64,000 nt of DNA, from the IMG/VR virus record IMGVR_UViG_3300018080_005856, positions 1 to 64,000 of that record; one strand, written 5' to 3'. Positions 31,443 through 53,010 of the stretch are shown in pieces (within the stretch, counting starts at the first letter, position 1; the number at the start of each line of letters is the position of its first letter). Source of the stretch: a virus. The notes beneath the pieces are model-generated. The model was not told the DNA's origin, ran no database searches, and saw nothing but the letters and a program-made list of their open reading frames with translations. The position numbers and the translations under genes were made by a program.

Positions 31443-31446
31443 TACA

Positions 31447-31782: not shown

Positions 31783-31793
31783 TGGTTACCTCC

Positions 31794-32698: not shown

Positions 32699-32729
32699 AA
32701 CACTTTCCCCATGTCCTTTCCTCTAATAT

Positions 32730-32802
32730 TCGGGATAGAAGGATTCGAACCTTCGGACTCCTGGTCCCAAACCAGGCGTGGTGACCGCTCCACTATATCC
32801 CG
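32730..32802 (-). tRNA. tRNA-Pro(TGG), no encoded CCA
   Basis: CGGGATA-TA-GTGG/CCAC-CCTGG TTTGGGA CCAGG-GAAGG TTCGAAT CCTTC-TATCCCG-A. Confidence 0.92.
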
Positions 32803-33633: not shown

Positions 33634-33649
33634 ATCTTCCTCCTTGGGT

Positions 33650-34323: not shown

Positions 34324-34346
34324 CTCAATTCTCCAGGTTGTGAAAA

Positions 34347-35062: not shown

Positions 35063-35068
35063 CTTTGC

Positions 35069-35769: not shown

Positions 35770-35774
35770 GGTGC

Positions 35775-36344: not shown

Positions 36345-37038
36345 TATGTTCCTCCTTTTCTTCACAGATATTGTGCGTATATCTCTTGTCATAGTTTGCT
36401 GTTGCTATTTCCAGAATTTCCCTGTTTATAGCTTTACCATGTTTATGAAACTCGAATGGTATATCACCAAACATATGAGATCCAAAACTACTAGAGAAGA
36501 ATTTCATCATATAGTTTTCTAGAATCCTGTTGTCTATTGATTGTACCAGTTCTACTAACAACGAAATGCCGTGTTTCCCTACAACCCGAGCTAGTGTTTC
36601 CACATCTTCCCTATTAGCAGCTCCACAAATTGTATGTATTGTAGGGCCCATGTGGCCCGTGTTTGCATATATCATGCATACATTCAGCATCCTATAACAG
36701 TTTTCACCAAACTTCTCTGCTTGATATGTTCTCAGTCTCTCGCCATATGTTCCTCTTCTGTAGAATACGTATCTATCTACGTCACCATCTAACATACCAA
36801 AGAACTTTAATGCTACCATGGTAGTCATCCACATGTTGATGTAATCTTCTTCCTTGCTTATGTATTTAAGCAGCTTCTTTGAAATCCATGGTATTTCATC
36901 TCCTGCTAGATCTGTTCTCTCGAAGAGTTCCAACATGGTTACCTCACTTTTGCCTCCGAATAGTTCCTCTACTCTTCTTCTTGGGTAGCCAGAACATGGC
37001 TTCCATGACATTATTAAACCTGGGGTCAGGGTTATCAT
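36334..37038 (-). CDS. Hypothetical protein
   Basis: Start moved to MITLTP, which has an AGGAGG RBS. Confidence 0.65.
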   Translation of the reverse strand: MITLTPGLIMSWKPCSGYPRRRVEELFGGKSEVTMLELFERTDLAGDEIPWISKKLLKYISKEEDYINMWMTTMVALKFFGMLDGDVDRYVFYRRGTYGERLRTYQAEKFGENCYRMLNVCMIYANTGHMGPTIHTICGAANREDVETLARVVGKHGISLLVELVQSIDNRILENYMMKFFSSSFGSHMFGDIPFEFHKHGKAINREILEIATANYDKRYTHNICEEKEEHNAH

Positions 37039-37085
37039 ATGATATTCCTCCTTTATTGTAATTTGTAGGTATAGAAACGAATAAA

Positions 37086-37454
37086 CTATTCGAACGAACA
37101 CTTAACCATAGTTGGTTTTGTACCGGACTTAGGTTGCGAATGAGTCCATGTATACATTGAGGGTACAGTATGTATCTCTCCTATCTTATCAAAGGGTATC
37201 CACATTCTTACTCGTGGGTATCCATACATGAAGGAGGAGTACTCGAATAATAGTTCATAATTATCATTTGTTCTTATCACTATTCCGTCTAGCTTGGAGG
37301 ATCTGTATATTTGACTCTTTTGGTCCTTCTCCTGGAGGATATTAACCTTTATCGCCCCGGCTATATGAATAACCACATGCTGGCCTATCTTATCTTCTAT
37401 GGATACTCGCCTCAGTTCGTTGAATATGTTAGCCACAGTGTGTCTCCTTCTCAT
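37086..37454 (-). CDS. Sm/Hfq-like paralogue
   Basis: IFNELRR...IGQHVVI...LDGIVIRTND...WIPFDKIGEI. Confidence 0.55.
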   Translation of the reverse strand: MRRRHTVANIFNELRRVSIEDKIGQHVVIHIAGAIKVNILQEKDQKSQIYRSSKLDGIVIRTNDNYELLFEYSSFMYGYPRVRMWIPFDKIGEIHTVPSMYTWTHSQPKSGTKPTMVKCSFE

Positions 37455-37855
37455 GCCGTAACGTAATATGTTGTTGTTTCATAGGACGCATACACTCCTC
37501 CAACATGGGCGGACATTTTGGAGTTGGTCCTAGGGTTGTCGTATAACATCTCCCAGGTTTCGCTACATCTTATCCTTCTTATACCGTAAATGAGATCTGC
37601 TGTTGTAGTATTTCTACCTGGAAAACCACTGCTGTGTGGCTGGATGAATATCTCAAACCCACTGTTGTATGCCAACTCGCGGATAGAGCTGATGTATACC
37701 CTAAATAAGTAATCTTGAATGAGCGATACATCTATATCTACAGGTCTTTTAGTAGATATAAGATTGCATAATCTTAAGGCCTGGCAGAAACCTATTTCAT
37801 CCACAAGGGCTTGCGGTAGCAAGCTGTGATTTGTCATGTCATTCCTCCTGCACAA
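37451..37855 (-). CDS. Hypothetical protein
   Basis: Coupled ORF. Confidence 0.6.
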   Translation of the reverse strand: MCRRNDMTNHSLLPQALVDEIGFCQALRLCNLISTKRPVDIDVSLIQDYLFRVYISSIRELAYNSGFEIFIQPHSSGFPGRNTTTADLIYGIRRIRCSETWEMLYDNPRTNSKMSAHVGGVYASYETTTYYVTA

Positions 37856-38213
37856 ACTTATCTAGGGATTTGGCGTTTACTCCAACAATTACATCCCATT
37901 CTGCGACGGTTGGCTTTACCATGTGCCTTGGTACTATACTGCTTATAGCATCAAAAGGAATTACAGCTCTCAAATCAATACTACTAGAAATGATTTGGTC
38001 TGGGCCAACCCTTGAATCAACAGTGAAACTATTATTGTCTACATATGTTACAATCCCATCCATGCATTCCACATATATGTTGGCTCTACTGTCAGGAATT
38101 AGATCATTATCATTTGCTGGTACCAGTACACATCTTTTCCCAATGTACTGTTCCAGTGACTTTCTTCTAAGTACATTAAACACAGTGGGAGATCTTTTTG
38201 ACATGTCAACCAA
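37839..38213 (-). CDS. Sm/Hfq-like paralogue (closest to Hfq)
   Basis: VFNVLRR...YIGKRCVL...MDGIVTYVDNNSFTV...VIPFDAISSIVP, compared with Hfq FLNALRR...QGQIESFD...VYKHAISTVVP. Confidence 0.6.
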   Translation of the reverse strand: MVDMSKRSPTVFNVLRRKSLEQYIGKRCVLVPANDNDLIPDSRANIYVECMDGIVTYVDNNSFTVDSRVGPDQIISSSIDLRAVIPFDAISSIVPRHMVKPTVAEWDVIVGVNAKSLDKFVQEE

Positions 38214-38374
38214 GCTCCATTACCTTAGCTTTCTTCTTAGTTCTGTAATAGTCAAGCACAAATTCTATATTCTTACCTATAGACCATTTACCCATAGGGG
38301 CGCTCTCTACAACTATTCCGTTCTCTTCTCTCAGACCGAAGACCCCATAAGGTAACTCTATTCTGTACCACATT

Positions 38375-38788
38375 TTATACCTTCCTAAACTTTATCCACT
38401 CTTTCCCATTCCATATCACATTATCATCCAATAAAGTTTCAGAGCTGCATTCCAATACATTGGCTAGATCTTCTTCATTGGGAGTATGTCTTCTCAGAAT
38501 ATCCTCATTTGTAACAGGGCTTACTGAGCGTATTTTGTCCACTGGTAGTGGTGCCAAAAAGGCAGTTCTTGTATCTATTAGTTTACCTTTTGGAGTTTCT
38601 CTCTTCCAGTGCATCACAAATAGTATACGGAGTTCTTCTCTATTTATGTCTAGTTGTTTGATAATAGCATAAAGGGAATACTTCGATTCTCTTAGTGATA
38701 TTAGACTAAGCATGTTCTTCATAGGGATATACCCAACCATTCTCAGGCAACTCATTGCGTTTATGTTACTATCCATCATACTCCTCAT
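38375..38788 (-). CDS. Sm/Hfq-like paralogue
   Basis: AMSCLR...MKNMLSLI...LYAIIKQLDI...LRI...LPVDKIRSVSP. Confidence 0.45.
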   Translation of the reverse strand: MRSMMDSNINAMSCLRMVGYIPMKNMLSLISLRESKYSLYAIIKQLDINREELRILFVMHWKRETPKGKLIDTRTAFLAPLPVDKIRSVSPVTNEDILRRHTPNEEDLANVLECSSETLLDDNVIWNGKEWIKFRKV

Positions 38789-39146
38789 TACATAGTATTC
38801 TGAGCCTGCACGGAGATATGCGTCTTATGGTTATTGTGTTGTTTATACCCATATAGTCGAAGGCATTTTCTGTTTCTACTATCCTGAAGCATTCCCCTAT
38901 ATGATCCTTTGAAAGTGTTCGCAGGAAGACAGCTGAGAACCTTTTTCCATCTATGACATATGTATCAGTCTCTGGTTCGTAAACCATGGTATCTTGTACT
39001 GATAGTAATGTTAACCATGGGAATAACAGCCAACGTAACCACGATGGTACTCTTTCTCCCTCTTTTCGTTTGAGTATCTTCCTGAAAATGACCCTGGCTA
39101 CAGTCCTCTTGTACTTCAGGTACTTATTGATAAGCTTGCTAATCAT
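38769..39146 (-). CDS. Hypothetical protein
   Basis: ORF in a co-oriented run. Confidence 0.6.
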   Translation of the reverse strand: MISKLINKYLKYKRTVARVIFRKILKRKEGERVPSWLRWLLFPWLTLLSVQDTMVYEPETDTYVIDGKRFSAVFLRTLSKDHIGECFRIVETENAFDYMGINNTITIRRISPCRLRILCNEEYDG

Positions 39147-39150
39147 GGGA

Positions 39151-39675
39151 TTAACCTGCCTTCTTCTTTCTTAACGGTTTTCCTTTGACCTTGGCCACTT
39201 CCGCAGATAGTTTGTCCAAAATGGATACCGCCGCTTTGGAAACACGTGATAGTTTATCCTTCAGCAGTTGGATGTCATACTCTATCGATTCAAAGAACTC
39301 AGTTCTAAGGTCTTCATCGCTTATAACATCGGTATATTTCATATAGCCACGACCAGATGTTCTGTTTCCTGGAGTGGATACATATTCTCTTACCTCTATT
39401 GGCTTTGCTTGTTTTCCTCCAGGTATGACAACTATTTTCATTTCCCTTATGAGTTCTGACGCTACTCCTAGATTGTACTTCTCTGCCGCTTTCTTCGTAT
39501 CCCATTCAAACGCATGATACTTATGTGTATACGACTTAGGGTTCTTGGCCAGTTTGTAAACCATATACTGATCCAGGTAACCGTCGTTATTGTCGCAAAG
39601 TTCCTTCAGTTCCTTTCTTATCTGGGACCTCACGTTAGGACCACGCTTCTTTCTAGTTGCTTTCTCGTTCTTCAT
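39151..39675 (-). CDS. Basic helical protein, candidate partner of the Cas7-like gene
   Basis: G.L....V...A..P.S..H...FEWD...AA..Y.L..A..LIR pattern, which I recognise from phage genes next to solo RAMP-like genes. AGGAGG RBS. Confidence 0.6.
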   Translation of the reverse strand: MKNEKATRKKRGPNVRSQIRKELKELCDNNDGYLDQYMVYKLAKNPKSYTHKYHAFEWDTKKAAEKYNLGVASELIREMKIVVIPGGKQAKPIEVREYVSTPGNRTSGRGYMKYTDVISDEDLRTEFFESIEYDIQLLKDKLSRVSKAAVSILDKLSAEVAKVKGKPLRKKKAG

Positions 39676-39706
39676 GTTGTTCCTCCTGTTATATATTATA
39701 TATGTT

Positions 39707-39728
39707 AAAAGAGAGGCCGAAGCCTCTC
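39707..39728 (-). terminator. Intrinsic terminator closing the periodic RNA
   Basis: GAGAGGC-TTCG-GCCTCTC-TTTT on the minus strand. Confidence 0.85.
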
Positions 39729-39742
39729 ATAACTTTGATGCA

Positions 39743-39797
39743 GACGAGTTGAATTGTGATGACTTGAACTGCTTCAAATCGTGACGCGAGGACCCGG
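39743..39797 (-). repeat. Eleven-unit 5-nt-period array (NCR-NN), candidate guide RNA
   Basis: CCG GG/TCC TC/GCG TC/ACG AT/TTG AA/GCA GT/TCA AG/TCA TC/ACA AT/TCA AC/TCG TC. C at position 2 in 10 of 11 units and a purine at position 3 in 10 of 11. Confidence 0.75.
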
Positions 39798-39815
39798 CAA
39801 CTATTATTCATAGTT

Positions 39816-39829
39816 CATATATATGGAAA
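39816..39829 (-). promoter_or_regulatory. Phage motif copy TTTCCATATATATG driving the periodic RNA
   Basis: Perfect consensus copy abutting the stop codon of the Cas7-like gene. Confidence 0.7.
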
Positions 39830-40471
39830 CTACTTATCAGATATCTTAAATCTGCCATTCATTCCACCCTTTCCAGATTTAGCTTCAGCTCTTCCAACGC
39901 CCAAACCAACTTCAAGGCCGGCTCTGTGCATCAGTTCTGTCAGTGTTTTTACCGATATTGTATCGGCATCATACTCTACCCTTGCCTTGATGCTCCATGT
40001 TTCCCACATTGTGCATATTGACGCCACAGATTTACCTTGGTCAGTTCTCACTACCCTGGGTAAGCATACTGGTGTTCCAACTACCTCTATAACCGGTGTT
40101 CCACATCTCCTATCAACCCCATCAGCCAGAGAGAATACCGTTTGTTTCATCTGGTTCATGGTGAGATCCGTATTCCTTGCTGCAGAGATTAGAGCAGACC
40201 TTATGGATAATGCACTTATTCCTATCTTGCCTTTTCCAAAGGTGTACCTGCTTTCTAAGTATAAGTACTCAAGATCAGGTTTCTCCTCCGCACCTCTCCT
40301 TGCTCGCTTCCCCGGTTCCTTGTCGAATAGGGACTTTATAATTCTGTCCCTCGATTCCCCTGACATTCTGTGACATATCAGTGGAGAAATACCCTTAAGA
40401 TGAAATACAACTATCTTGTGGTTGGGCATCACAGATAGTACTTGTTCCTTACTTTTCTTTGATGGTGCCAT
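39830..40471 (-). CDS. Solo Cas7/RAMP-like protein (213 aa)
   Basis: Beta1 VFHLKGISPLICH, helix ISALSIRSALISAA, WSIKARVEY, Gly-rich loop AGLEVGLGVGR...GRFKI. AGGAGG RBS at 40471 and a motif copy at 40495-40508. Confidence 0.75.
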   Translation of the reverse strand: MAPSKKSKEQVLSVMPNHKIVVFHLKGISPLICHRMSGESRDRIIKSLFDKEPGKRARRGAEEKPDLEYLYLESRYTFGKGKIGISALSIRSALISAARNTDLTMNQMKQTVFSLADGVDRRCGTPVIEVVGTPVCLPRVVRTDQGKSVASICTMWETWSIKARVEYDADTISVKTLTELMHRAGLEVGLGVGRAEAKSGKGGMNGRFKISDK

Positions 40472-40554
40472 GAGTGTCCTCCTTTCTATATTTTCAGGAA
40501 TATGGAAACTACAGATTGGGACATTGGGTTCCAGACCTTGGAAAGAAAGGGGAC

Positions 40555-40749
40555 CTAGTCCCCCTTGGTGTTGTCTTTCCTGACCTGACATAGCAAGTAT
40601 CTCTTTGCTATTGCCATGTTCATTTGATAACGGATGGCCCATGATTGAATATCCATAGCCGGCCGTTCAATTGATTTCTCATAATCAACTAGATCCGTTC
40701 CAAACATGGTCAGTGATTTAATGATATCTACTCTACCTGTCTTTGACAT
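40555..40749 (-). CDS. Hypothetical protein
   Basis: ORF followed by a terminator hairpin. Confidence 0.5.
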   Translation of the reverse strand: MSKTGRVDIIKSLTMFGTDLVDYEKSIERPAMDIQSWAIRYQMNMAIAKRYLLCQVRKDNTKGD

Positions 40750-40752
40750 AAT

Positions 40753-41172
40753 CTATTCTCCGGCTTCTGCCTCCTTTAGCGCGCAGTTGATGCACACCAT
40801 GCGGCCGTCCCTATGCCTCTGAATCCTGAGGCTCTTTGGGGTGTTACTCCAGTATTCTCCACATACATCGCATTTCTCCATATCTGTAGCCCCAAGTTCG
40901 CCTTCCCTTTGATTCATGGCATCTGGGTCAGTTTTCTGGCAGCCACAGTTTTCGCATACCATGTACTCGTCTTCCAGCAACCACCCACAACGACACTCCC
41001 ACATAGGTATCAGGCATTCAGCATAACCAGTTTCCGCTTTTGACTGCCTCTCTTTCTTCCATTTGGAACACACTTCAAGAGCATCTTCCAAGTCGTAGAA
41101 TTCTCCCTTGTGCCATATATTAGAGGTAATGCCGTCTTTGTGATAGCCTATTGATACTACTTTGTACTTCAT
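40753..41172 (-). CDS. Zinc-finger protein
   Basis: WECRCG...CENC, CDVC...CINC. Confidence 0.65.
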   Translation of the reverse strand: MKYKVVSIGYHKDGITSNIWHKGEFYDLEDALEVCSKWKKERQSKAETGYAECLIPMWECRCGWLLEDEYMVCENCGCQKTDPDAMNQREGELGATDMEKCDVCGEYWSNTPKSLRIQRHRDGRMVCINCALKEAEAGE

Positions 41173-41184
41173 TTAGGAACCTCC

Positions 41185-41376
41185 TTACTGTTCAAATGGG
41201 TTGTACTGCAGCAAACACCAATCTAGCCGTAGTTCTCTTCTCTTTCGCTTCTTCTTCTTCCATGGGAGCTTCTTTGATTCTTCCCATTCTCTGAAGATGC
41301 GTTCTTTCATAGATGCTTTGGCTTCTGCAAGGTCACATAGAGTTTGCGACATTATTTGCAAATAAGTTCTCCTCAT
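41185..41376 (-). CDS. Small basic hypothetical protein
   Basis: ORF with RBS. Confidence 0.55.
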   Translation of the reverse strand: MRRTYLQIMSQTLCDLAEAKASMKERIFREWEESKKLPWKKKKRKRRELRLDWCLLQYNPFEQ

Positions 41377-41423
41377 AGTTTCTATTCCTCCTTTATATAG
41401 TCTATTCTATGGAATTGCTCCAC

Positions 41424-41669
41424 CTATAGTCCTTGTGGCATTGGCATCCAGCCAGCAACATCTTCGCATGCTATATATGCTGGAATGAATCCATCATCAA
41501 AGTATAATGCGTTCTTAAGCTGATCTCTATAGCATGTGCCACCAAATTCCTGGTCATCTTTGGACAGATAACCAACGGTGACCCGGTTGCGTGTCCTATT
41601 GGGATAGACCAGTGACAGTATAATTGTCTTACCCTCTATAGGGTCCCTATCCGTAATCCAGTCATTCAT
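41424..41669 (-). CDS. DUF551-like protein
   Basis: MNDWI..RDP...VAGWMPMP. Confidence 0.65.
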   Translation of the reverse strand: MNDWITDRDPIEGKTIILSLVYPNRTRNRVTVGYLSKDDQEFGGTCYRDQLKNALYFDDGFIPAYIACEDVAGWMPMPQGL

Positions 41670-41670
41670 G

Positions 41671-41991
41671 TCATGACCTCCTCTCTTTCATTTCGAGCCT
41701 CTCGAGTCTCTCGTTCTCAAGCATATCCACCATTCTTCTATAGGCCTCATCTAGCATCTCTATGTGATCCATCGGGTAGCCGGTCCAAGTCATCATCTCT
41801 GCTACTATTTGACCAAACCATTTTACCAAACCGCCCATACTTGAGAGATCGCGCCCGGCCATGTCTAGTGGGCTACCTTGCACTTTTGTGCTGTTGACAA
41901 CCCCGATTAGATCCTCGAGGAAGCTAGCCTTGTTAGCTAATTCCCTAATGACATTACTCATGTCCTCGATCAGTTCGTCTTTTATTACCAT
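41671..41991 (-). CDS. Hypothetical protein
   Basis: AGGAGG RBS. Confidence 0.65.
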   Translation of the reverse strand: MVIKDELIEDMSNVIRELANKASFLEDLIGVVNSTKVQGSPLDMAGRDLSSMGGLVKWFGQIVAEMMTWTGYPMDHIEMLDEAYRRMVDMLENERLERLEMKERRS

Positions 41992-42009
41992 TGTTCGTCC
42001 TCCTTACTA

Positions 42010-42375
42010 TTATATGTTACTATTAGCATAGAAGATAATAGTGTTAGGTTTATCCAAGGATTCTGCCAGATCTAGTGAGTGCTTTGTTCCTCTGCTTTCT
42101 CCATCCCAGAATGCCAGAACCATGTCACAATGATCCACTATGAGCTTATTCCTCTTGTATCCCGCTGATTTGCCGTACTTGTTCCACTCAGCTCTGAATA
42201 CTGTCAAGGGTATATTGTTCTCATTCGCATATCTTGCTCCCAGGGAATCAGCTCCCCTGGCACCGCCAGATACTATTTCCTCTATTTCGTGACCGTTTCT
42301 TATGAGCTCTTCAACACTCTGCTTGAGTAATTCATAGTCGTCGAATTCTCTTGATCCTATTATTGCTAGTATCAT
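42010..42375 (-). CDS. DUF2493/YspA-like SLOG-family protein
   Basis: IIGSR.F.DY, IVSGGARGAD, AEWNKYGKSAG.KRN, FWDGESRGT. Confidence 0.9.
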   Translation of the reverse strand: MILAIIGSREFDDYELLKQSVEELIRNGHEIEEIVSGGARGADSLGARYANENNIPLTVFRAEWNKYGKSAGYKRNKLIVDHCDMVLAFWDGESRGTKHSLDLAESLDKPNTIIFYANSNI

Positions 42376-42499
42376 GTTACATCCTCCTTAAGTTATATTC
42401 ATATATATAGAAAGGCGAATCTTAAGCCATGTGTTCCAGAGTACCAGTAAAAGAAGCGGGCGTTAGCCCGCGGTTGTTTCTCACTATGATGACCTATTG

Positions 42500-42781: not shown

Positions 42782-42857
42782 GACGATACCCTCCTGTTTG
42801 TGATTCGCGAATCAAGAATGATTCACGCGAGATATTTCTATCTCATATGTATGGAAA

Positions 42858-42940
42858 GGAAAGGGCCTTTCGGCCCTTAGGGATCATAGCGTTTATCAAA
42901 CAAGGGATGACCCCTTATCAATCATCATACTAGGAGATAC
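42858..42940 (-). ncRNA. Candidate ~80-nt sRNA
   Basis: ORF-free unit from motif copy 42941-42954 to the terminator AAGGGCC-GAAA-GGCCCTT. Confidence 0.5.
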
Positions 42941-42951
42941 CATAAATATGG

Positions 42952-43104
42952 AAAAAGAGAGCTGGCCTGCTCTCTTAATCCGTGCGTGTTATAGTATTGG
43001 CTTTGTTCCTGCGGTCAGCCTACCCAGCAGTTGAGCAGTTACAGGAACTATAAGTGCTCACCACCGGCTCCTCTGGATCCGCGAAATCCTTCGGGATAAC
43101 ACAC
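42952..43104 (-). ncRNA. Candidate ~150-nt structured RNA with pseudoknot
   Basis: TGGTATAAT at 43111-43119. Stems GTGTGTTAT/ATAACACGC and GTTCCTG/CAGGAAC, with TGAGCA/TGCTCA crossing them. Terminator at 42955-42976. Confidence 0.55.
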
Positions 43105-43139
43105 CTCTGTATTATACCACGAGTAAGGAATCGAAGAAA

Positions 43140-43340
43140 CTATCCTCCGGCTCCATGCTTACAAAGACAGTCCTTAGACACACACTTACCTGTGTGATCA
43201 ACCTGACATGGGCCGCAGCCTTCACATATAACTACGGCATACATGCCTTTCCTGGTATCCTCTTCTGATGATAAACCGGATAGATCGCCTAGATCTTCAC
43301 CAAAGTGATCTATACTGCACTGCTTACAGAAATCAGCCAT
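43140..43340 (-). CDS. Small Cys-rich phage protein
   Basis: MADFCKQCS...ICEGCG...VDH.G.C...C...H. Confidence 0.7.
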   Translation of the reverse strand: MADFCKQCSIDHFGEDLGDLSGLSSEEDTRKGMYAVVICEGCGPCQVDHTGKCVSKDCLCKHGAGG

Positions 43341-43398
43341 AGCTATTCCTCCTGTATTATAGTCACAGTTATGGAAAAGATGAGAGCCAGAGGCTCTC

Positions 43399-43677
43399 TT
43401 ATCCGAGATGTATGGGTCTGTTCTTCATATAGATATAGGCAACAAGTCCAGCTACGGCTACACATCCGAATCCTGTGAGGAACAGGTACAGAATAGTAAG
43501 CCATATGCTTCCAGTTCCTATCAAGAACAGAACTATTGAGCCTGTAGCCATGGCCCCTACTATCCATAGTTTCTTATCGTAGATATTCGGGTTGTTTCTC
43601 TTTACATTCACTGAGAATGCCCACCAGCTTACTACGATAGAAGCCACATAAACCAGAACGGCTAGAAATGTAATCAT
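43399..43677 (-). CDS. Small membrane protein
   Basis: 3 TM segments. GGAGGAGG RBS. Confidence 0.65.
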   Translation of the reverse strand: MITFLAVLVYVASIVVSWWAFSVNVKRNNPNIYDKKLWIVGAMATGSIVLFLIGTGSIWLTILYLFLTGFGCVAVAGLVAYIYMKNRPIHLG

Positions 43678-43722
43678 GATAACACCTCCTCCATCTATTC
43701 TATCAGTAAGGAAAGAAGGGGA

Positions 43723-43923
43723 CTACTCGTCCCCGAAGATGTTGTCCTGGCATTTCTGGCACAACCCTGATATTTCGTACTCTTTCCGAGATAGATCATC
43801 TCTGAAGCTATTCGGATTAGGGAGTACTACTTGATGGCAAATAGGACATCTACGTGACTCTATGTCCTTCTTTGCCTCAGGGAATACCTTGAATACGGGT
43901 TTGTTAAGATCTGGTTTATTCAT
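43723..43923 (-). CDS. Small zinc-finger phage protein
   Basis: CPIC...FRDDLSRKEY.ISGLCQKCQD..F. Confidence 0.7.
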   Translation of the reverse strand: MNKPDLNKPVFKVFPEAKKDIESRRCPICHQVVLPNPNSFRDDLSRKEYEISGLCQKCQDNIFGDE

Positions 43924-43984
43924 GTCTAAACAGCCTCCAGACTAACCATATTATGAATATTACTATCAACAATTCCATGACTGG

Positions 43985-44640
43985 CCTCCTTATCATAAGT
44001 ATGAAATTTATCCCCCTTTCCTGTATCCGGGGTACCATTGTCCCTTCAGACTCGCGCCCCTCTTGAGGAAGCTTAATAATAACAGAGCGCACCATTCCAG
44101 ACATCTGCGAGCGAACGGCGCCAGCCGGCCGGAGATGCACAGCTATGCCTGTCATTCTACCGTGCGTCATTCAAGAGATGGAATTAAGCCTCGCGAGGGA
44201 CTAAAGAGAAATACTCTGACGGCTACTCGTCAATAGTCTAATAAGGGATTATCGCCCGGGAAAATAGCCCTGTAACCCAGTACATTTCCCTATGGCTCCG
44301 GCTATTGCTCGGTCACTCTCCCCCTCAAGGGGGCCGGACGCCTCTTACAATCCTATTTCTCAGCTGTTTTCATGTACATCCCTCTCCTGTACATGAATGC
44401 TGTCGACACTTCCATAAATCCTCCGGGGAAAGGGTAATCACCCCCAGATATCCAGTATAAATACTGATATATCCAGGGACGGGGGAGGAAATCCCCCGGA
44501 CCCCCTCTATTCCTAGCCAATCAAGATCCTGAACCGGTAAAATATATAGATCGGGTATGAGCCGATCCATATATCTGTCACAGAAGCGTCAGCCACACCC
44601 CTGCCGGTCGGCCCCACCAATGGCTGAAATGGGAAGGCCC
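43985..44640 (-). ncRNA. Candidate large (~650-nt) structured RNA
   Basis: Starts at motif copy 44641-44654. GC-rich with many long stems and no ORF with an RBS. Confidence 0.6.
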
Positions 44641-44671
44641 CATTTGTATGGAAAAGAAGAGGCCGTAGCCT

Positions 44672-44938
44672 CTATTCATTGCTAGTTGATATGACTATTC
44701 GCCCTTCATCATCAAACTCGTTGTTGTGTTCGTATGGGTTATACCCCATCCTCTTTAAATCATGTAAGGCGGCACGGCAGGATTTTATCTCGCCGTTGCA
44801 ACTAAAGACGATAAGTATGGTGATATGGTCACCAGTATGCTCGTCCACCGCGCAGAGGTCAACGTTAGTATGGACGGACTTCTCCAGCACTATACACCAG
44901 TGCTTGTTTTCTTTATGTTTTCCTTCAAACATTCTCAT
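44672..44938 (-). CDS. Hypothetical protein
   Basis: RBS, structured leader, motif copy at 45028, terminator. Confidence 0.65.
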   Translation of the reverse strand: MRMFEGKHKENKHWCIVLEKSVHTNVDLCAVDEHTGDHITILIVFSCNGEIKSCRAALHDLKRMGYNPYEHNNEFDDEGRIVISTSNE

Positions 44939-45058
44939 CTCTATTTCCTCCTTGTTTTATCATAGCCAATTTGGGGGGTCTACCAAAGCAGAACACCCCC
45001 AAAGTAAGCTATTATGATCAACGTCCTCATAAATATAGAAAAGAAGAGGCCGTAGCCT

Positions 45059-45334
45059 CTATACTCGCCAGGTTCTTATATCATTGACGGCCTTACTAAT
45101 ATCAACGTGTTGAGCCAGAATATCTCGGGCTACGTCTATCTTTCCCTGTCTGTAGGCCTCGTACCATATGGCCTGAGTAAGCTCAGATATTGCTTTTATA
45201 TCCTCATCTTTTACATCCTTTCCCATATGTACTACCTTATCCAGGAACTGGAAAGCGCATCTGTGGATTTGAACTCGGTGCAGCTCACTATCCTCTGAAA
45301 ACGTTACTTCACATAGAACTAAAGAATCGTCCAT
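45059..45334 (-). CDS. Hypothetical protein
   Basis: Start moved to MDDSLV (AGGAGGT RBS). Motif copy at 45379. Confidence 0.65.
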   Translation of the reverse strand: MDDSLVLCEVTFSEDSELHRVQIHRCAFQFLDKVVHMGKDVKDEDIKAISELTQAIWYEAYRQGKIDVARDILAQHVDISKAVNDIRTWRV

Positions 45335-45408
45335 GTATATTACCTCCTTTAATGTAGTTGACTTATGATCAATGTCCTCGTAAATATGGAAAAGAGGGCT
45401 ATTAACCC

Positions 45409-45846
45409 TCAGTGTGAGCATGGTGCCCCTGTAGCAAGGCGCGCCTCAGCGTCAGCGGGGTTCTCACCCGCATTTACATGGACAAACTCTATTTCTATTT
45501 GGTCCTTCACACGAGTTATCCACTCCTGGTACTCTTTTGTGGCCGGTTTCTTAGCCTTCCAAGAGCCATTCGCCCAAGCAGATACACCTTCGTAGTAGTG
45601 TTTAATGACTACTTTCTCGTACCCCTTGGAATGAGCATATCTGACAGCCTCTATGGCTGCCTTGATTTCGCCCCCTACGTTCCTCATAGAGACAATATCG
45701 TCCCTAACTAAGGCGCCATGGGCTTTATACCCATCAGAAGCCACTATCCCCCAACCCACAAGGGTTGGATTATTAATAGTAAACGAGCCGTCAGTATAAA
45801 CCTCTATAGTTCTCACAACATCACCTCCAATACAGATATATAACAA
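45409..45846 (-). CDS. rnhA: Ribonuclease HI (true start probably the GTG near 45817)
   Basis: VYTDGS, RNVGGEIKAA, Y.GV..WA.G.WKA, F.HV.A..N..AD..A. The second catalytic Asp position appears as H/Y (IKHYYEG). Confidence 0.8.
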   Translation of the reverse strand: MLYICIGGDVVRTIEVYTDGSFTINNPTLVGWGIVASDGYKAHGALVRDDIVSMRNVGGEIKAAIEAVRYAHSKGYEKVVIKHYYEGVSAWANGSWKAKKPATKEYQEWITRVKDQIEIEFVHVNAGENPADAEARLATGAPCSH

Positions 45847-46248
45847 ATCTCATATATATAGAAACACGCTATATTACCTCTTTTATTACCTTTACATACT
45901 GAGATATTACCCTCACTACATACATCTCATTGCCCTTACATACAATATGGGGGTGCGTCCCTCTATACAGTACTCCCCTTCTATGCCATTACAATACCTA
46001 TACCGGGTACAATACAATACAATACTAGATACAATACCAGGTACATGAACTTGACAGGGCTAGGACGCTCATTATTTATATACTGAGCTATTATTTGTGA
46101 CCTGACTTATGCAGGTCATTATATGGGTTTAAGACCCATATTATTGGCAAAACTGTCAGATTCTTGACAGTAATTTGCTTATGGGTTCCCCTCCCTAAAG
46201 GGCACCCTCCCCATGTGTTCCTTATGTGTTTTTATGTTAAAAGGGGGC

Positions 46249-46584
46249 CTAGTGGCCCCAGATCTTATGGTCTTGATACTTCCATATAGGCAGTGATATG
46301 CTATATACTAGGGCGCCTAGCACCGCAGTATTTCTACAGTAGTACCAGAGACACTTCAATATGGCCGGATAGCCGTAATAATACGCTACCAGGGTCCATA
46401 TTCCGAATATGAAGGAACAGGTATATGCCAGCATAGCTAGCGTTTCACTTTCCCTCCATGTTGCCATTCCTATCAGGAATAGCACCGCAGTTATAATATG
46501 TAACCCATACGCTACAGATAGGACACTTCCGTATTCTGTAGACTGACTCAGTATGGGCCTTCCCTCTATAATGAACCAATCCAC
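46249..46584 (-). CDS. Membrane protein
   Basis: 3 TM segments. GGAGG RBS with GTG start. Confidence 0.65.
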   Translation of the reverse strand: MDWFIIEGRPILSQSTEYGSVLSVAYGLHIITAVLFLIGMATWRESETLAMLAYTCSFIFGIWTLVAYYYGYPAILKCLWYYCRNTAVLGALVYSISLPIWKYQDHKIWGH

Positions 46585-46764
46585 GATTACCTCCAGTAAG
46601 TATGATTATATTGTACTTTCTTGCTGTTATGGGCTGTCACAGCAAGGAGACGAGGGGGTAGCCTAAGTACATAGGCATCCAGATTCCGAGTCAGGTACTG
46701 GCTAAACGACAGTCCTGATTCTCACCCATGGGTATGGAAACGTAAAGGGGAGGGCCTTAGCCCT

Positions 46765-46944
46765 CTATTCTAATGTGGTTACGATCTCTTTTACCAACTC
46801 CATTCCCTCTTTCCCATACTCTATGAGTTTAGGGAGTTCATCTCCGGAGATCTCATATTTGAGATCTACTTTGGCGCCTGACAGGCTGAACTTCTCGTCC
46901 GGGACTTCAAGGGACTTTACTTCGAATGTCATTTGCATGATCAT
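46765..46944 (-). CDS. 59-aa hypothetical protein (not in the ORF track)
   Basis: MIMQMTFEVKSLEV..., AGGAG RBS, motif copy at 46985, terminator. Confidence 0.6.
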   Translation of the reverse strand: MIMQMTFEVKSLEVPDEKFSLSGAKVDLKYEISGDELPKLIEYGKEGMELVKEIVTTLE

Positions 46945-47035
46945 GATATATACTCCTGTTAGTATGATTTGGGACTCTATATCCCACTATTATGGAAAGA
47001 TGAGGGCCTATTAAGCCCTCTATGTTTACTCGGTT

Positions 47036-47308
47036 TTAACCCTCTCTGACGGTAGCTGTCTGCCGGGACAATTTCTCCATCTTTACGAGGGCTTTCTGCT
47101 CTTTCCTGTATGCGTTTACAGCATTAAGCAGGTGCTGCCTGCAGACGTGGCAGGACATGATATGATCGATTGTTTCGATGTTATCATGAATGAGCTTCTC
47201 GCTCTTCTCTGCATTGTTACAGGTATTATGTTCGACCCACTTCTTCTCCAGTTTGTGAGAAGTGTTTGCGAGTCCTGTTACGGCGTTAGTTACTATGTTC
47301 TTAAACAT
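47036..47308 (-). CDS. Hypothetical protein
   Basis: AGGAGGT RBS, motif copy at 47333, H...C..C. Confidence 0.65.
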   Translation of the reverse strand: MFKNIVTNAVTGLANTSHKLEKKWVEHNTCNNAEKSEKLIHDNIETIDHIMSCHVCRQHLLNAVNAYRKEQKALVKMEKLSRQTATVREG

Positions 47309-47344
47309 AGTGGTACCTCCTTAGGTAATATTCATGAGTATGGA

Positions 47345-47472
47345 AAAGAGAGGCGAGCCGGTGCAATATCCTGCGTGCCCTCGTTAACTTTCAGATGTTT
47401 CGGGAGTAACCCTATCAACTGTTGGTATGGAGTGACGCATTCCCTTTCCCCGTTGGGACACCGTGATCCTCT
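47345..47472 (-). ncRNA. Candidate ~125-nt sRNA
   Basis: ORF-free unit between two motif copies. Its ends pair (GAGG..CGGTGT / GCACCG..CCTC-TTTT). Confidence 0.5.
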
Positions 47473-47495
47473 CATTTATATGGAAAGAGAAGGGG

Positions 47496-47896: not shown

Positions 47897-47954
47897 GATA
47901 TTGCCTCCTTTGCACCGCCCACTATTCTAGAGGTGGGACAATGCATATATATGG

Positions 47955-48390
47955 AAAAGGAAGGCCGTGCACAGCCTCCCATACGGGATACATGGATTAC
48001 AGTTGGGCTAGGCACCTCGTCATTTCAGACTGTCTATTTACGCTCAGAGTGGACCATCTCTTCATCACGCACGTGACCGTCTTCTTGGTACCATTCCCAC
48101 GCTTATCTCCAGGGGATCCAGACCTGAAGATTATAGCTTCACCCAAGGACTTATCCGATTGTATGAAGCAGGTAGGGCGCCCCCTGAACGAATCCAGAGA
48201 ACGCCCTTTCAGTGGGTTTCACAGAAGAATACAACGGGGTATTAGGAAGGATTAAATATAATACCGCTAGTATGGAACCCCAAACAGAACCCCGGTAATA
48301 TAGTAATAACCCCCTATAAAGGGAAGGGTAGCCTCTTACCGCCGTTAATCCTCCCTGTAATGCGCATGGTAACGACCTTAAGTTGTTACA
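47955..48390 (-). ncRNA. Candidate ~430-nt structured RNA
   Basis: Long stems with minus-strand G-U pairs. Ends in a terminator. Confidence 0.6.
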
Positions 48391-49013: not shown

Positions 49014-51458
49014 TTAGCCAAGTAACCTCTCCGCATAGAGGCATGCCATACCATTCATACCTCTTACGTTGGAAACCTCCTTTCTCTCTACGAGTGCTTG
49101 CACGAACACCGCATATAGAACGATAGCCCTTTCGATCTTAGATACATCGAGTGTATCTATTATCTCTGGGTTATCATGGAGTTGTTTCCTGGTAGTTCCG
49201 ACAATCTTCTCAAGAAGAGTATCCACAACTACCATGTGGACATGAGCCATAGGCTTATGAGCTAACGCCCACATCTGCAGCATGACCTCTCTTTCTTCGG
49301 CGGAGATCAAAGGCTTAGCCGCTTTAATGTTGTCAGCACGAAACTCGCCAGCAACATCAAAGATCTTGTCGGTATCAAGCTCTACTCTATACACCTGACG
49401 TATAGCCTGAGCGAAGGATTCTGCAGTTCCTTCTCTCCAGCCGACAAGTTTACCACTGATGACAGTAGCGGTAGGGGACTCCCTGTCACCAATGAGAAGT
49501 TTACCAAGAACTGTGTCACACAGTTCATAGGCTTCATTGACCCCAACAGATAGGCCAACATACTTCTTAATCCCTTGGACACTGTCCTGGATAGACTGTG
49601 CCAGAGGTAGAAGATCACTCATAGCAGATTCTAAAGCATCTGACCGGAAATCATAGACAGTAGCCAGACATTTCATGTAAGCCGCTACAAGTATAGCTGT
49701 TCTCTCTTGACACCACCTGCCATGCATACAGGCTGTCCAGGGAGTAAGCTCACCTTCAGCAGGTACCGATGATTTATCTATCATTCCGAAATCATCAGTA
49801 GCCCGCACCATGCTTCTATACCCCGGGAGGAATAGAGCATGATCATCACAGTCAGACTGCCAACCAACTGTGGCTTCCAAACACACTACAGCCACGACTC
49901 CATCTACATCATCCAAGGTATGCTCAGATAGACGTAGATCTAAGAAGGAGCCCTTTGTAGTATTTGGATACCTGACCCCAGCAACAAAGTCAGATATTTC
50001 TCCAGTCCGAATAGTAAACTGAGTAAATCCAGACTGAAGTGCATCCCGCATTTCACGAGATGGTACAAACTCCCCAGGAAGAAGCTTGTGAACGTGACCA
50101 CCATCCACAACCACATGAGTCCTGTGTATTATTGCTGCATATACAGAACTCGGGGCATTGGCACTCATAAGAGCCTTAGACCTCTTATTAAGTCCCATTA
50201 TGACTCCCGGATCGTTTGCAGGAAGATATCCAAGAACATACTTAGACAGATAGCTATCTATAAGTACATCCTCTTCATCATTGGATAGACCCATATCCAA
50301 GTGACGATACATGGATCCCCTGAGATCATTCAGAGCTGCAGTCTTACCAAATGCCTCTTTACGGAGAAGAGCCATGATATCTTTCCGTGTGACCTTATCC
50401 CACTGTCCAAGAACCATATAGAACAGGTTCAGGCGATAAGCCTCCTTCTGTTCATGGTTCTCAATCTTGGACAGCCCGATAGTCATGTCGAGAACTACGG
50501 AGTCTTTCCCGGCATAATCTACCTTTATCCATTTGATAGCCGAGTCATAACACCAACCATCAAACTCCTCTGGAATAGGCTTTCCATCTGGTCCTATAGA
50601 AGCCTGTGCTGGGGAGTGGAGCAGCCTCCCCTTCACTATTCCAGTCTTTCCATCCATAGGAACAAGACCTCTTACAAGACCAAAGTCCCCGGATTGTAGG
50701 ATACTTGCTCTGCGGACTAAGATCACACCATCCGCATCCAGAGTATTACCTACTTCAGAAAGCTCCTCTGGGAATACCTTTATCTTGAGCTGATCAGGCA
50801 TTCCGAGGATCTCAGACCAACCGTCTTTACCCGCCCTTATGCGAAGGACGTTGACCTCTTGATCTGATACGTTGCCACACGCTTCACGGATAACGTCAGC
50901 AAACATGTCCCTATTCACCGAAACTATTCCATTCAGAATGGTTTCAGCTCTCCTGGAGGATATCCAGGAAGGATGTGCCGGGAATGCTACACCCTTAACA
51001 CCTGTCATCTTGAGGGCATACTCAAAGAGTCTACCTCTCAGAAAGGTGCTACATGAAATCAGGTTGAGATTAAAGCGCTCCTTTCCCTTCTGATTCCGGT
51101 TCCTTTTAGCTATCTGTTGACCGTTGTACTTTAAGCCAGCACAATAGCTACGGCCTGCACGAGATCTCCGCATATCCCTTGCGAGCTCGACACCGAGGAC
51201 TTCTGCCAGTGCTGCAGCTGTAAATGTCTTAGTAACATCTACAGCCACCTGACGAAGCTCTCTTTTCCTGAAGGCCTTAAATGCCTTAAAGACATAAGAC
51301 CCAGGGAGGACGATCTGATTCTTTATATACGGTGATACAAAGAACCTGTCCCCGTTCCAAACAAGCGTCTTTCCAGGCAATGGCCTGAAGTCAGCTTGCT
51401 CAGATGCCCGGAGAGATGACCCTCCGAGTAACAACTTAAGTAACCCATGATTATCCAT
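49014..51458 (-). CDS. Divergent single-subunit two-barrel RNA polymerase (YonO / cellular-RdRP-like), 814 aa
   Basis: Motifs in the expected order: DADGVILV, LVRG...IVKG.L, DSAIKW, VAGVRYP, WQSDCDDH (DxDGD position). AGGAGGT RBS. Confidence 0.7.
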   Translation of the reverse strand: MDNHGLLKLLLGGSSLRASEQADFRPLPGKTLVWNGDRFFVSPYIKNQIVLPGSYVFKAFKAFRKRELRQVAVDVTKTFTAAALAEVLGVELARDMRRSRAGRSYCAGLKYNGQQIAKRNRNQKGKERFNLNLISCSTFLRGRLFEYALKMTGVKGVAFPAHPSWISSRRAETILNGIVSVNRDMFADVIREACGNVSDQEVNVLRIRAGKDGWSEILGMPDQLKIKVFPEELSEVGNTLDADGVILVRRASILQSGDFGLVRGLVPMDGKTGIVKGRLLHSPAQASIGPDGKPIPEEFDGWCYDSAIKWIKVDYAGKDSVVLDMTIGLSKIENHEQKEAYRLNLFYMVLGQWDKVTRKDIMALLRKEAFGKTAALNDLRGSMYRHLDMGLSNDEEDVLIDSYLSKYVLGYLPANDPGVIMGLNKRSKALMSANAPSSVYAAIIHRTHVVVDGGHVHKLLPGEFVPSREMRDALQSGFTQFTIRTGEISDFVAGVRYPNTTKGSFLDLRLSEHTLDDVDGVVAVVCLEATVGWQSDCDDHALFLPGYRSMVRATDDFGMIDKSSVPAEGELTPWTACMHGRWCQERTAILVAAYMKCLATVYDFRSDALESAMSDLLPLAQSIQDSVQGIKKYVGLSVGVNEAYELCDTVLGKLLIGDRESPTATVISGKLVGWREGTAESFAQAIRQVYRVELDTDKIFDVAGEFRADNIKAAKPLISAEEREVMLQMWALAHKPMAHVHMVVVDTLLEKIVGTTRKQLHDNPEIIDTLDVSKIERAIVLYAVFVQALVERKEVSNVRGMNGMACLYAERLLG

Positions 51459-51541
51459 AGGGTACCTCCTGTATTTATTGTATGCCTCTGTGAGACACCC
51501 TCATAGTATTGAACTCAATAGTTCAATACCCAGAGGCTGCC

Positions 51542-51634
51542 TCATAAACACATACTACAGGGTATAACAAGTTGTTTGGCACAGTCACGATGTGAAGACT
51601 CACAACTGTGCATGCGTCGGTGTCGATATACCAT
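51542..51634 (-). CDS. 30-aa Cys/His-rich peptide (not in the ORF track)
   Basis: MVYRHRRMHSCESSHRDCAKQLVIPCSMCL, AGGAGGT RBS. Confidence 0.4.
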   Translation of the reverse strand: MVYRHRRMHSCESSHRDCAKQLVIPCSMCL

Positions 51635-51683
51635 AATGACACCTCCTATTGTTAATGCACTGTACCGATCTCAGCTACGGTAT

Positions 51684-51725
51684 GCGTCCGCCCGGGAGTC
51701 GAACCCGGGTAAGCGCCATTCGGAC
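51684..51725 (-). ncRNA. Minimal tRNA-like element (acceptor-like stem plus canonical T-arm)
   Basis: GTCCG-aatggcgctta-CCCGGG TTCGACT CCCGGG-CGGAC, directly after a stop codon. Confidence 0.6.
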
Positions 51726-52034
51726 TTACTTCCACTCAGACAGGGGTGGCCCCTCCAGAGCGAGGTGTTCCCCCATCATATCTCTGGCATCATCCAGCAA
51801 CTGATCAAGATCAATCACTGGTTTGCCTACTTCCGCCTTAAGCTCGGTAGGAATATCAGCTACAGCCATGATGTGATTCCATGACTGTAAGAACTGTTCT
51901 GCCTCCTTCTTACTTAAGGCCTTCCCACTATACGCTTCAATAAGCAGCATAGTGTCCTTCACTGCAGTGGTTACCTGCTCCATCCTTCTCTTCATCCTTC
52001 TTGTGACTTCTTGTAACTCTATTGCCTTTGACAT
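51726..52034 (-). CDS. Hypothetical helical protein
   Basis: AGGAGGT RBS directly after hammerhead A. Confidence 0.7.
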   Translation of the reverse strand: MSKAIELQEVTRRMKRRMEQVTTAVKDTMLLIEAYSGKALSKKEAEQFLQSWNHIMAVADIPTELKAEVGKPVIDLDQLLDDARDMMGEHLALEGPPLSEWK

Positions 52035-52050
52035 AGAGTACCTCCTGTGA

Positions 52051-52106
52051 TATGTTTCGGATCCCGCTACAGATCCTCATCAGTGGGCTTAAGCTACCCA
52101 TACATA
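52051..52106 (-). ncRNA. Type III hammerhead ribozyme A (GUA site, cut between 52101 and 52100)
   Basis: TATGTA|TGGG-tagcttaag-CCCA CTGATGA GGATC-tgtagcgg-GATCC GAAACATA. Intact core and three stems. Confidence 0.92.
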
Positions 52107-52136
52107 GGGACAGTTTTACATCATGTCCCAGGATGT
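52107..52136 (-). ncRNA. H-type pseudoknot motif A
   Basis: ACATC CT GGGACA T GATGT AAAAC TGTCCC. Covaries with copy B. Confidence 0.75.
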
Positions 52137-52141
52137 AATGC

Positions 52142-52330
52142 TTAACGATATTGAGATAGATCTATACCTTTAACATTAAACCTACCAAATACTGCTTCAC
52201 GCTCAGCATTAACAGCCTTAAGCTTTCTTAAAGCCATCTGCACCTTTGCAGCGTGATACGGGTGAGCCTTGCAGAATTCAGCTATCTGCTCTGGGCTCAT
52301 TTCGAGTAAAGTTTTAACTAGTTCGACCAT
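52142..52330 (-). CDS. 62-aa hypothetical protein flanked by the hammerheads
   Basis: AGGAGGT RBS directly after hammerhead B. Confidence 0.7.
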   Translation of the reverse strand: MVELVKTLLEMSPEQIAEFCKAHPYHAAKVQMALRKLKAVNAEREAVFGRFNVKGIDLSQYR

Positions 52331-52347
52331 AATGGACCTCCTATAGT

Positions 52348-52406
52348 AGTGTTTCGGCTCTTGCTTAGGGAGCCATCTTCAGTGGGCTTAAAGCTACCCA
52401 GACACC
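52348..52406 (-). ncRNA. Type III hammerhead ribozyme B (GUC site, cut between 52401 and 52400)
   Basis: GGTGTC|TGGG-tagctttaag-CCCA CTGAAGA T GGCTC-cctaagcaa-GAGCC GAAACACT. The loops can pair (GCUU/AAGC). Confidence 0.88.
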
Positions 52407-52434
52407 GGGTAGTTTTACATCATACCCAGGATGC
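52407..52434 (-). ncRNA. H-type pseudoknot motif B
   Basis: GCATC CT GGGTA T GATGT AAAAC TACCC. Confidence 0.75.
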
Positions 52435-52440
52435 TTGAGC

Positions 52441-52614
52441 TTACTTCTGTGTAGATACGCACTGGCCAGTAACTTTGTTGCAGACTACTTTGCCTTTGAA
52501 AGCATCACTAATCTGCTTGTCCTGCCTTGCTGCCAAAACTACAAACAGAGCCAAGAAAGCTACTGTAGCTACACCAACCATAAACTCTCCAAACTTCTCT
52601 TTTCTTGTATTCAT
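52441..52614 (-). CDS. 57-aa single-TM protein (not in the ORF track), first gene of the leftward operon
   Basis: MNTRKEKFGEFMVGVATVAFLALFVVLA...C....C, AGGAG RBS. Confidence 0.65.
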   Translation of the reverse strand: MNTRKEKFGEFMVGVATVAFLALFVVLAARQDKQISDAFKGKVVCNKVTGQCVSTQK

Positions 52615-53010
52615 ACTGATTCTCCTAGTTGCGGACTATACCCATTGATTCTGCAGGGGATTTAACTGCAGATCTCATACACTGTTATCCAGGTGGTATG
52701 AGTTACCTGTACGGCTCCATTGACTGATCCCAATGGCGCGCTATACTTGTCTACTCGTCCAATACGGTGTATAGCAACCTCTTGGCGCGAGGGTAGAAGT
52801 ACCCGGGGGCTCGAACCAAGCAGATCCGATCCTCTCTAATACTCACCTGGTCCCGTTATACCCAAAACCGGGTTTGGCCCCCTATAGGGATTTTTGTCTT
52901 GACTCCTGGATATGGTTCTTGTAATCTTATGGGTGATAACCCTACGAACTTTTCTGGAACCCTGTAGATGGTATAAAGAGATCCTATGATTTTTGATACA
53001 GGTGGGGATT

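Follow-up and report, generated by a model that had tools for sequence, protein, structure and literature searches.

RNA polymerases (RNAPs) of the two-barrel (double-psi beta-barrel, DPBB) superfamily have all been described as carrying the acidic metal-binding motif DxDGD, while the DNA polymerase PolD carries NxDGD; in addition, these RNAPs share the nucleotide-selectivity motif RxPxLH, the Arg of which contacts the ribose, and PolD has GLAPHT instead (PMC7708050). In phages, single-chain members of this superfamily include gp64 of P23-45, gp62 of P74-26 and YonO of SPbeta, and template-dependent RNA synthesis, along with its dependence on the Asp triad, has been tested experimentally for gp64 (PMC10770324) and YonO (PMC5467207). 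The gp64 protein is a non-virion RNAP that is encoded in a pre-early operon upstream of small early genes and transcribes these genes from its own compact promoter motif; in P23-45, the operon encoding gp64 is in turn transcribed by a virion RNAP (PMC10770324). Here, we describe P0001, a protein of 814 amino acids (aa) encoded on the minus strand at 49014..51458 of the window, i.e., the first 64 kb of the 150,487-bp IMG/VR record IMGVR_UViG_3300018080_005856 (CheckV completeness ~79%). From its computed fold and conservation, the statistics of a recurrent DNA motif, and the co-occurrence of motif and gene in relatives, we infer that P0001 is probably a catalytically active, DNA-dependent, single-subunit two-barrel RNAP with the metal loop DxDD, which would be paired with this motif and transcribe an early or middle gene block from copies located downstream of its own gene.

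Membership of P0001 in the two-barrel polymerase superfamily is strongly supported by its predicted fold. An AlphaFold2 (AF2) model built from a family alignment of 40 sequences (alignment A2, ~17-65% identity) reached a mean predicted local distance difference test score (pLDDT) of 93.1 and a predicted template-modelling score (pTM) of 0.90, and a Foldseek search with this model against PDB retrieved, at E <= 1e-3, two-barrel polymerases only, including QDE-1 (6.6e-10), P74-26 gp62 (6e-9), P32 gp64 (1e-8), RDR2 (2e-7), crAss-like phi14:2 gp66 (2e-6) and P23-45 gp96 (8e-5), with bacterial beta' chains next, just past this cutoff, from E 1.3e-3. VIA, a search of 48,161 representative chains that is independent of Foldseek, ranked gp62 first (Z 17.4-17.5 over 414-440 aligned residues), along with gp64 (Z 17.4), QDE-1 (Z 15.6 over 499-520 residues), ZmRDR2 (Z 13.5) and gp96 (Z 10.9), and a repeat gave the same ranking. 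Further VIA matches were beta'/Rpb1-type chains (Z 8-10 over P0001 residues 428-690; E. coli beta', from its residue 339 on, aligns from model residue 428) and fragments of the AR9 and PhiKZ non-virion RNAPs, and structure matches in BFVD and ESM Atlas were RNA-dependent RNA polymerase (RdRP) or RNAP clusters. The first, beta-like barrel is placed at approximately residues 218-344 (50427..50807, minus strand) by the strand pattern of the model, by conservation, and by the alignments with PolD DP2, which spans both barrels (residues 214-562), and with the DPBB-like protein 4avr (residues 221-330). The second, beta'-like barrel, at approximately residues 431-558 (49785..50168, minus strand), is delimited by VIA matches to an AR9 beta' fragment (Z 8.7 over 431-558) and to designed DPBBs (Z 8.1-8.2 over 436-546). 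In beta', the loop that leads into the final strand of the beta'-type barrel holds the motif NADFDGD; in the P0001 model, D536-C537-D538-D539 (49842..49853, minus strand) forms the loop that connects a short helix (529-533) to the final strand of barrel 2 (540-545), and is thus predicted to occupy the position that DxDGD has in other polymerases. The original prediction, which was made from the DNA letters and considered that a DPBB fold might prove to be missing, had described a YonO- and QDE-1-like two-barrel polymerase; structure prediction and Foldseek bear out the fold. By sequence, P0001 is no member of the YonO or Pfam RdRP family.

The sequence motifs of P0001 follow the order D243-G244, R263...K276-G277, S306..K309, R496-Y-P498 and W533-Q-S-D-C-D-D-H540, just as had been read from the sequence initially, with the codons of the acidic motif running from 49853 to 49842 on the minus strand. 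Conservation across alignment A2 is concentrated in these elements: G244, K276, P498, D536, D538 and D539 are invariant in 40/40 members, D243, K309 and R496 are kept in 39/40 and R278 in 38/40, and, overall, the three Asp residues and eight other positions are invariant throughout. Within barrel 1, D243-G244, R263, K276-G-R278, K309 and E333 are conserved. The basic b-motif of two-barrel RNAPs consists of two Lys and one Arg in the beta-type barrel (K838, R842 and K846 in beta), and K276, R278 and K309 are the residues of barrel 1 that we compare with it, a comparison made without coordinates. R496-Y-P498 (49965..49973, minus strand), identified by family conservation as the RNAP-type selectivity motif, lies 40 residues N-terminal of the acidic loop, which resembles the arrangement of R-x-P and DxDGD in beta', YonO and gp62; retention of its Arg in 39/40 and of its Pro in all members favours use of ribonucleoside triphosphates. 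The acidic loop itself reads D-x-D-D in 40/40 members, where x is G in 24, C in 5, D or N in 4 each and S in 3 (family consensus D-G-D-D), and DxDGD was found in none of the 40; among relatives at 42-47% identity, some share DCDD and others have DGDD. As DxDD is invariant, the Cys of DCDD is no assembly error and the loss of Gly no accident of this one sequence; an assembly error behind the missing Gly had been named as a possibility along with the initial observation that the Gly is absent while three Asp remain. An alignment anchored on the following strand (...LFLP in P0001, ...YLFP in gp62) leaves the loop one residue short of DYDGD, such that the three acidic residues are spaced i, i+2, i+3, rather than i, i+2, i+4 as in the a-motif of the DxDGD type. 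PolD (NxDGD) and the crAss-like RNAPs (DFDID) indicate that the a-motif tolerates some change, yet both keep the i, i+2, i+4 spacing.

Compared with described polymerases, P0001 is structurally closest to gp64 and gp62 (PDB 8f72 and 8f5m; Z 17.4-17.5 over 414-459 aligned residues), which likewise are single chains of ~600-800 aa with two DPBBs, and the DYDGD of gp62 stands at the same distance after R-x-P as DCDD does in P0001, before a hydrophobic strand that ends in P. By contrast, there is no detectable sequence similarity to these proteins (hhalign probability 1.2% for the family profile against gp62), and P0001, whose C-terminal region is helical, exceeds them in length by ~170 aa. YonO is also a single-chain, DNA-dependent two-barrel RNAP of ~840 aa, and the order and spacing of the residues that are invariant in its family (DG249, R266, KG271, K316, RxP492 and DNDGD535) parallel those of P0001; this comparison is one of sequences, with no solved YonO structure among the matches. 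The two differ in their acidic loops (DNDGD versus DCDD) and were not significantly related by hhalign, in which the family profile reached a probability of 0.15% against YonO and 0.17% against a 14-member YonO alignment; a pairing of QSDCD-DH with QFDNDGDK in the single-sequence YonO comparison was discarded at the former probability. Some YonO relatives match PF05183 (RdRP), which P0001 does not, and YonO relatives are common in Bacillota genomes (>3500 matches), whereas the P0001 family was found in 0/185,579 prokaryotic species genomes. QDE-1 and the eukaryotic RDR proteins match the fold of nearly the whole of P0001 at ~11-13% identity, but QDE-1 has DYDGD, and its RNA-silencing role is without phage counterpart. 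While the beta'/Rpb1 chains share with P0001 the barrel-2 region, the RxP motif, the acidic loop and the long helix that follows, P0001 differs from the beta/beta' pair of multisubunit RNAPs in holding both barrels in one chain.

Database searches indicate that the DxDD family is real but rare. P0001 has no match in Pfam (E <= 1), PHROGs or PDB sequences, and a tblastn search with P0001 and three distant members against 50,697 GenBank phage records found none. A word-indexed search of 5.8 billion proteins yielded six relatives (34-65% identity), and a profile search of 1.84 billion cluster representatives yielded 43 clusters, 37 of them at E <= 1e-10. Scans with an alignment of the close family, A2 being too divergent for pattern scans, found no relative in IMG/VR except this record and none in the species genomes referred to above. 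The members that could be placed lie on short metagenomic contigs amid small ORFan genes, neighbourhoods that look like phage early regions. Judged by sequence, the putative family is separate from the YonO/Pfam RdRP (PF05183) and gp64 families, and it is recognisable within the superfamily solely by its structure and by the sequence in which a few residues follow one another. Neither DGDD nor DCDD appears in Supplementary Data 4 of a survey of viral two-barrel RNAPs that was keyed on DxDxD, which makes this weak evidence of novelty (PMC10770324), and a full-text literature search found no paper pairing DxDD with double-psi. These searches describe a small, previously unannotated family of predicted phage RNAPs with DxDD in place of the near-universal DxDGD. 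Single distant members carry fusions, namely to an N-terminal PIF1/AAA_30-type superfamily 1 (SF1) helicase (P0033), to a C-terminal RNase H (P0037), and to NADAR plus DUF1848 or to DUF4326 (P0027 and P0036); a Pfam search found none of these domains, helicase and RNase H included, in P0001 itself.

The DNA downstream of the polymerase gene carries a recurrent motif, TTTCCATANNNNTG (TTTCCATA-N4-TG). The window has 12 exact copies of it, each of them on the minus strand, against an expectation of 0.34, and none of 100 shuffles reached 12. Of the core TTTCCATA, the minus strand of the 150-kb record carries 19 copies in the interval 19.8-48.0 kb and another 9 in the ~122 kb outside it; the entire plus strand has 4. 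Once one-mismatch variants (TTTCTATA...) are admitted, motif scans give ~20-22 good copies, in agreement with the ~21 same-strand downstream copies that had been noted at the outset. The coordinates of the motif copies below are on the minus strand. Going downstream from the polymerase gene, one first meets TTTCCATATATATG (47944..47957), which stands directly after a 9-bp hairpin and T-run and is followed by a dense cluster (42844..47486), mostly after GC hairpins, with exact copies at 47473-47486, 47333-47346, 46985-46998, 46727-46740, 44641-44654, 43364-43377, 42941-42954 and 42844-42857 and variant copies at 45851-45864, 45379-45392 and 45028-45041. Further copies extend over 19855..42413 (42400-42413, 40495-40508, 39816-39829, 37064-37077, 29594-29607, 28320-28333, 26270-26283 and 19855-19868). 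In many copies, including most of those in 19855..42413, a ribosome-binding site (RBS) begins 18-26 nt past the first motif base, often 4-12 nt after the motif, a spacing that confines the start site to the motif or to the bases immediately past it. Hairpins followed by T-runs, which resemble terminators, are themselves enriched between 41 and 53.8 kb (22 found, 7.7 expected), and many motif copies lie directly 3' of one. We also observed that the 6 kb from 42400 to 48000 (minus strand) hold ~15 promoter-like motifs and many hairpin terminators alongside few open reading frames (ORFs) of >= 100 aa; several units in this stretch look too short for coding or lie at too great a distance from an RBS, and some may be small RNAs. 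On the plus strand of a gene-poor stretch amid these motifs, five copies of TACAATAC are clustered at 45990-46037, partly as a run of ACAAT pentamers.

A strand-specific recurrent motif also accompanies the polymerase gene in other lineages. On contig L014, whose polymerase is 44% identical to P0001, CCYTTATTTNTGR occurs 10 times (0.32 expected), always downstream of the polymerase gene and on the same strand; on contig L008 (42% identity), CTCTTTTTATAC followed by a TNATGG-like sequence occurs 3 times (0.03 expected), again downstream and on the polymerase strand; and contig L007 (37% identity) has similar copies that are statistically weaker. The versions have in common a pyrimidine-rich run followed by (A/T)TA(T/C), 3-4 nt and TG(R). 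The co-occurrence of motif and gene is thus seen across the lineages of the window, L014 and L008, and cognate promoters would be expected to show just this, motifs that differ between lineages yet go along with the polymerase gene; P0001 would then be the enzyme that uses the motif of the window. A separate observation concerns the region upstream of the polymerase operon on L014 (1230-1400, plus strand), where GTACCTTTATG(T/G) occurs about four times; it is unlike the downstream motif and may be a promoter for the enzyme that transcribes the polymerase gene, and no counterpart of it was found in the window.

With regard to the polymerase gene itself, the ORF is intact and starts with AGGAGG-N7-ATG, a strong RBS of the kind in use throughout the record. 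It is the last gene of an operon read leftward from ~52.98 kb on the minus strand, the upstream part of which (51459..52990), as delineated by sequence reading, sub-threshold Rfam matches and motif scans, comprises four small ORFs, two candidate hammerhead-III ribozymes and a tRNA-like minihelix in the order small membrane-protein ORF, hammerhead candidate, 62-aa ORF, second hammerhead candidate, 102-aa ORF, minihelix with acceptor and T-arm, and 30-aa ORF. The two hammerhead candidates (52346-52408 and 52049-52108, minus strand) lie ~300 nt apart and 0.6-0.9 kb upstream of the polymerase gene, and both have intact cores (CUGAUGA/CUGAAGA...GAAAC); they scored 31.7 and 23.5 bits (E 2e-4 and 0.04 when 1.6 kb were searched), with the Rfam gathering score higher at 48.5. 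They are more simply taken as mRNA-processing elements of the polymerase operon. The minihelix (51685-51725, minus strand) combines an acceptor-like stem with a GGTTCGA(C/G)TCC T-arm and stands between cistrons; a second one was seen in the operon at ~52795-52820 (minus strand), and L007 has one at 5070-5112, just 3' of the polymerase-adjacent gene. Such minihelices may be processing signals for RNase P or tRNase Z. Motif scans did not find the TTTCCATA motif in the operon (51.5-53.0 kb), and transcription by another polymerase is therefore required.

This layout, a motif-free operon encoding the polymerase and a motif-bearing block downstream, parallels that of gp64 in P23-45, and the YonO gene is likewise located upstream of, and on the same strand as, the genes that YonO transcribes (PMC5467207). 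Under the mechanism that we propose, the leftward operon from ~53.0 kb, with the polymerase gene last, would be transcribed by the host RNAP or possibly by a virion RNAP. Once made, P0001 would recognise TTTCCATA-N4-TG, start within or just after the motif, and transcribe ~20 short units (small ORFs, two tRNAs, perhaps also small RNAs) within the 30 kb that adjoin its gene downstream, with hairpin and T-run terminators between them that would each abut the next promoter.

Several considerations weigh against this proposal. The placement of DCDD at the metal-binding position rests on topology and flanking motifs; motif copies often abut terminator-like hairpins, so that part of the signal, the T-run, could belong to terminators; and the enzyme that reads the motif could be a different phage polymerase, or the host RNAP aided by a phage factor. 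Moreover, the larger ORFs that were scanned, ~half of the length of the 150-kb record, included no recognisable DNA polymerase or primase, and the helicase, RNase H, NADAR/DUF1848 and DUF4326 fusions of distant members would allow replication-linked roles for such members. We regard it as unlikely that P0001, while an active two-barrel RNAP, transcribes other genes, e.g., late ones, and that TTTCCATA-N4-TG is read by the host RNAP (perhaps together with a phage factor) or by some other phage polymerase, or is mainly a companion of terminators. Such a division of labour would agree with YonO, which transcribes a single late operon (PMC5467207), with the many motif copies that directly follow hairpins and T-runs, and with the presence in this record of a 2121-aa protein that may be a second polymerase. 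However, five copies that lack a hairpin (those at 29607, 39829, 40508, 26283 and 19868) keep the full TTTCCATA core, which indicates that the motif is more than a terminator tail; the motif does not look like a sigma-70 promoter, and sites of that type show no enrichment (25 against an expected 24.8); lineage-specific versions accompany the polymerase gene in three relatives; and motif scans of the record found neither a copy of this motif before the structural genes nor a second recurrent motif before these genes or the polymerase operon.

Quite improbable, in our judgement, is a role of P0001 in DNA replication, be it as a primase-like RNA polymerase or as an enzyme turned into a DNA polymerase, as PolD was from the same fold. 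The helicase and RNase H fusions of P0033 and P0037, the failure to recognise any DNA polymerase or primase in the scanned parts of the record, and the NxDGD of PolD, in which variation of the a-motif goes along with a change of substrate, could be accommodated by such a role, but the RNAP-type R-x-P is present in 39/40 members where PolD has GLAPHT, P0001 is without the fused domains, replication genes may be missing from a record that is ~79% complete, and the promoter-like motif array would be left unexplained. The original prediction had offered, besides an active variant that transcribes from the motif, a repurposed enzyme acting on neighbouring ribozyme-processed RNAs; the former is best supported (by the invariant DxDD, RxP, the motif statistics and the motifs of relatives), and the latter found no support. 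That P0001 is an RdRP that copies or amplifies RNAs, e.g., hammerhead-excised RNAs encoded just upstream, seems to us very improbable, even though QDE-1 and plant RDR2, both RNA-templated, are among the best structural matches and the hammerhead candidates flank the 62-aa ORF so close to the gene. The top structural matches, gp62 and gp64, are DNA-dependent, as is YonO; the ribozymes belong to the mRNA that encodes the polymerase, and their cleavage of it simply separates cistrons; proximity alone links their RNAs to the enzyme; and ribozyme searches found none near the polymerase genes of L007, L008, L010, L011, L014 and L015. A candidate twister-P1 does lie 3' of the polymerase gene of a distant relative (L009:2681-2732, plus strand; 42.5 bits against a gathering score of 67.2; E 1.9e-6), 37 nt past the stop codon of P0012 (~21% identity). 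Finally, it is hardly credible that P0001 is an inactive relic or a structural protein with a decayed metal loop; the loop does depart from the DxDGD consensus stated for all two-barrel RNAPs (PMC7708050), but the three Asp residues and eight further positions are invariant over 40 members with as little as ~17% identity, and the ORF is intact behind its strong RBS.

A more far-reaching possibility, which we put forward tentatively and consider doubtful, is that the DxDD geometry is unlike that of every characterised two-barrel polymerase and that in this phage P0001 acts second in a cascade of two polymerases, where an injected 2121-aa tail-module protein would transcribe the ribozyme-cut pre-early operon encoding the DxDD enzyme; or else the shifted third Asp would accompany another chemistry, such as primer or DNA synthesis, of which the fusions of distant members to helicase and RNase H give a hint. 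The tail-module protein of 2121 aa (record 110367-116732, plus strand; L005:368-6733) has DQDMD at residue 1390, and its five homologues have an invariant D-F-D-F-D; it has no Pfam or PDB-sequence match, and an AF2 model of its residues 480-1620 from 6 sequences reached a pLDDT of 45.9, which makes it unusable for fold comparison. Should the preferred reading of P0001 as an active, motif-transcribing RNAP be correct, i, i+2, i+3 would be a workable spacing for a rebuilt Mg-binding loop; a polymerase as compact as 814 aa, together with its predicted promoter of 14 nt, would lend itself readily to tests in vitro; and the set of single-chain relatives of cellular RNAPs on which reasoning about RNAP origins draws would gain a new lineage. 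Published searches for phage RNAPs key on DxDxD (PMC10770324), and the DxDGD triad is treated as a universal signature of two-barrel RNAPs, bacterial enzymes and eukaryotic RdRPs alike (PMC7708050); with a loop one residue shorter, the DxDD family is missed by motif-based screens.

The remainder of the record is that of a tailed phage, encoding a T4-type large terminase, a capsid protein, RecA, tail-fibre-like proteins and an M23 peptidase inside a 2760-aa protein, and most of its genes are without Pfam or PHROG match. A 96-nt tRNA-Ala(GGC) called by ARAGORN at 2813-2908 of the window (plus strand), inside the ORF at 2727-3512, is probably a false call, to which Rfam gives no support. At 13437-14050, eight tandem repeats of 72 nt (24 codons) lie inside a 518-aa ORF (12978-14534, minus strand).

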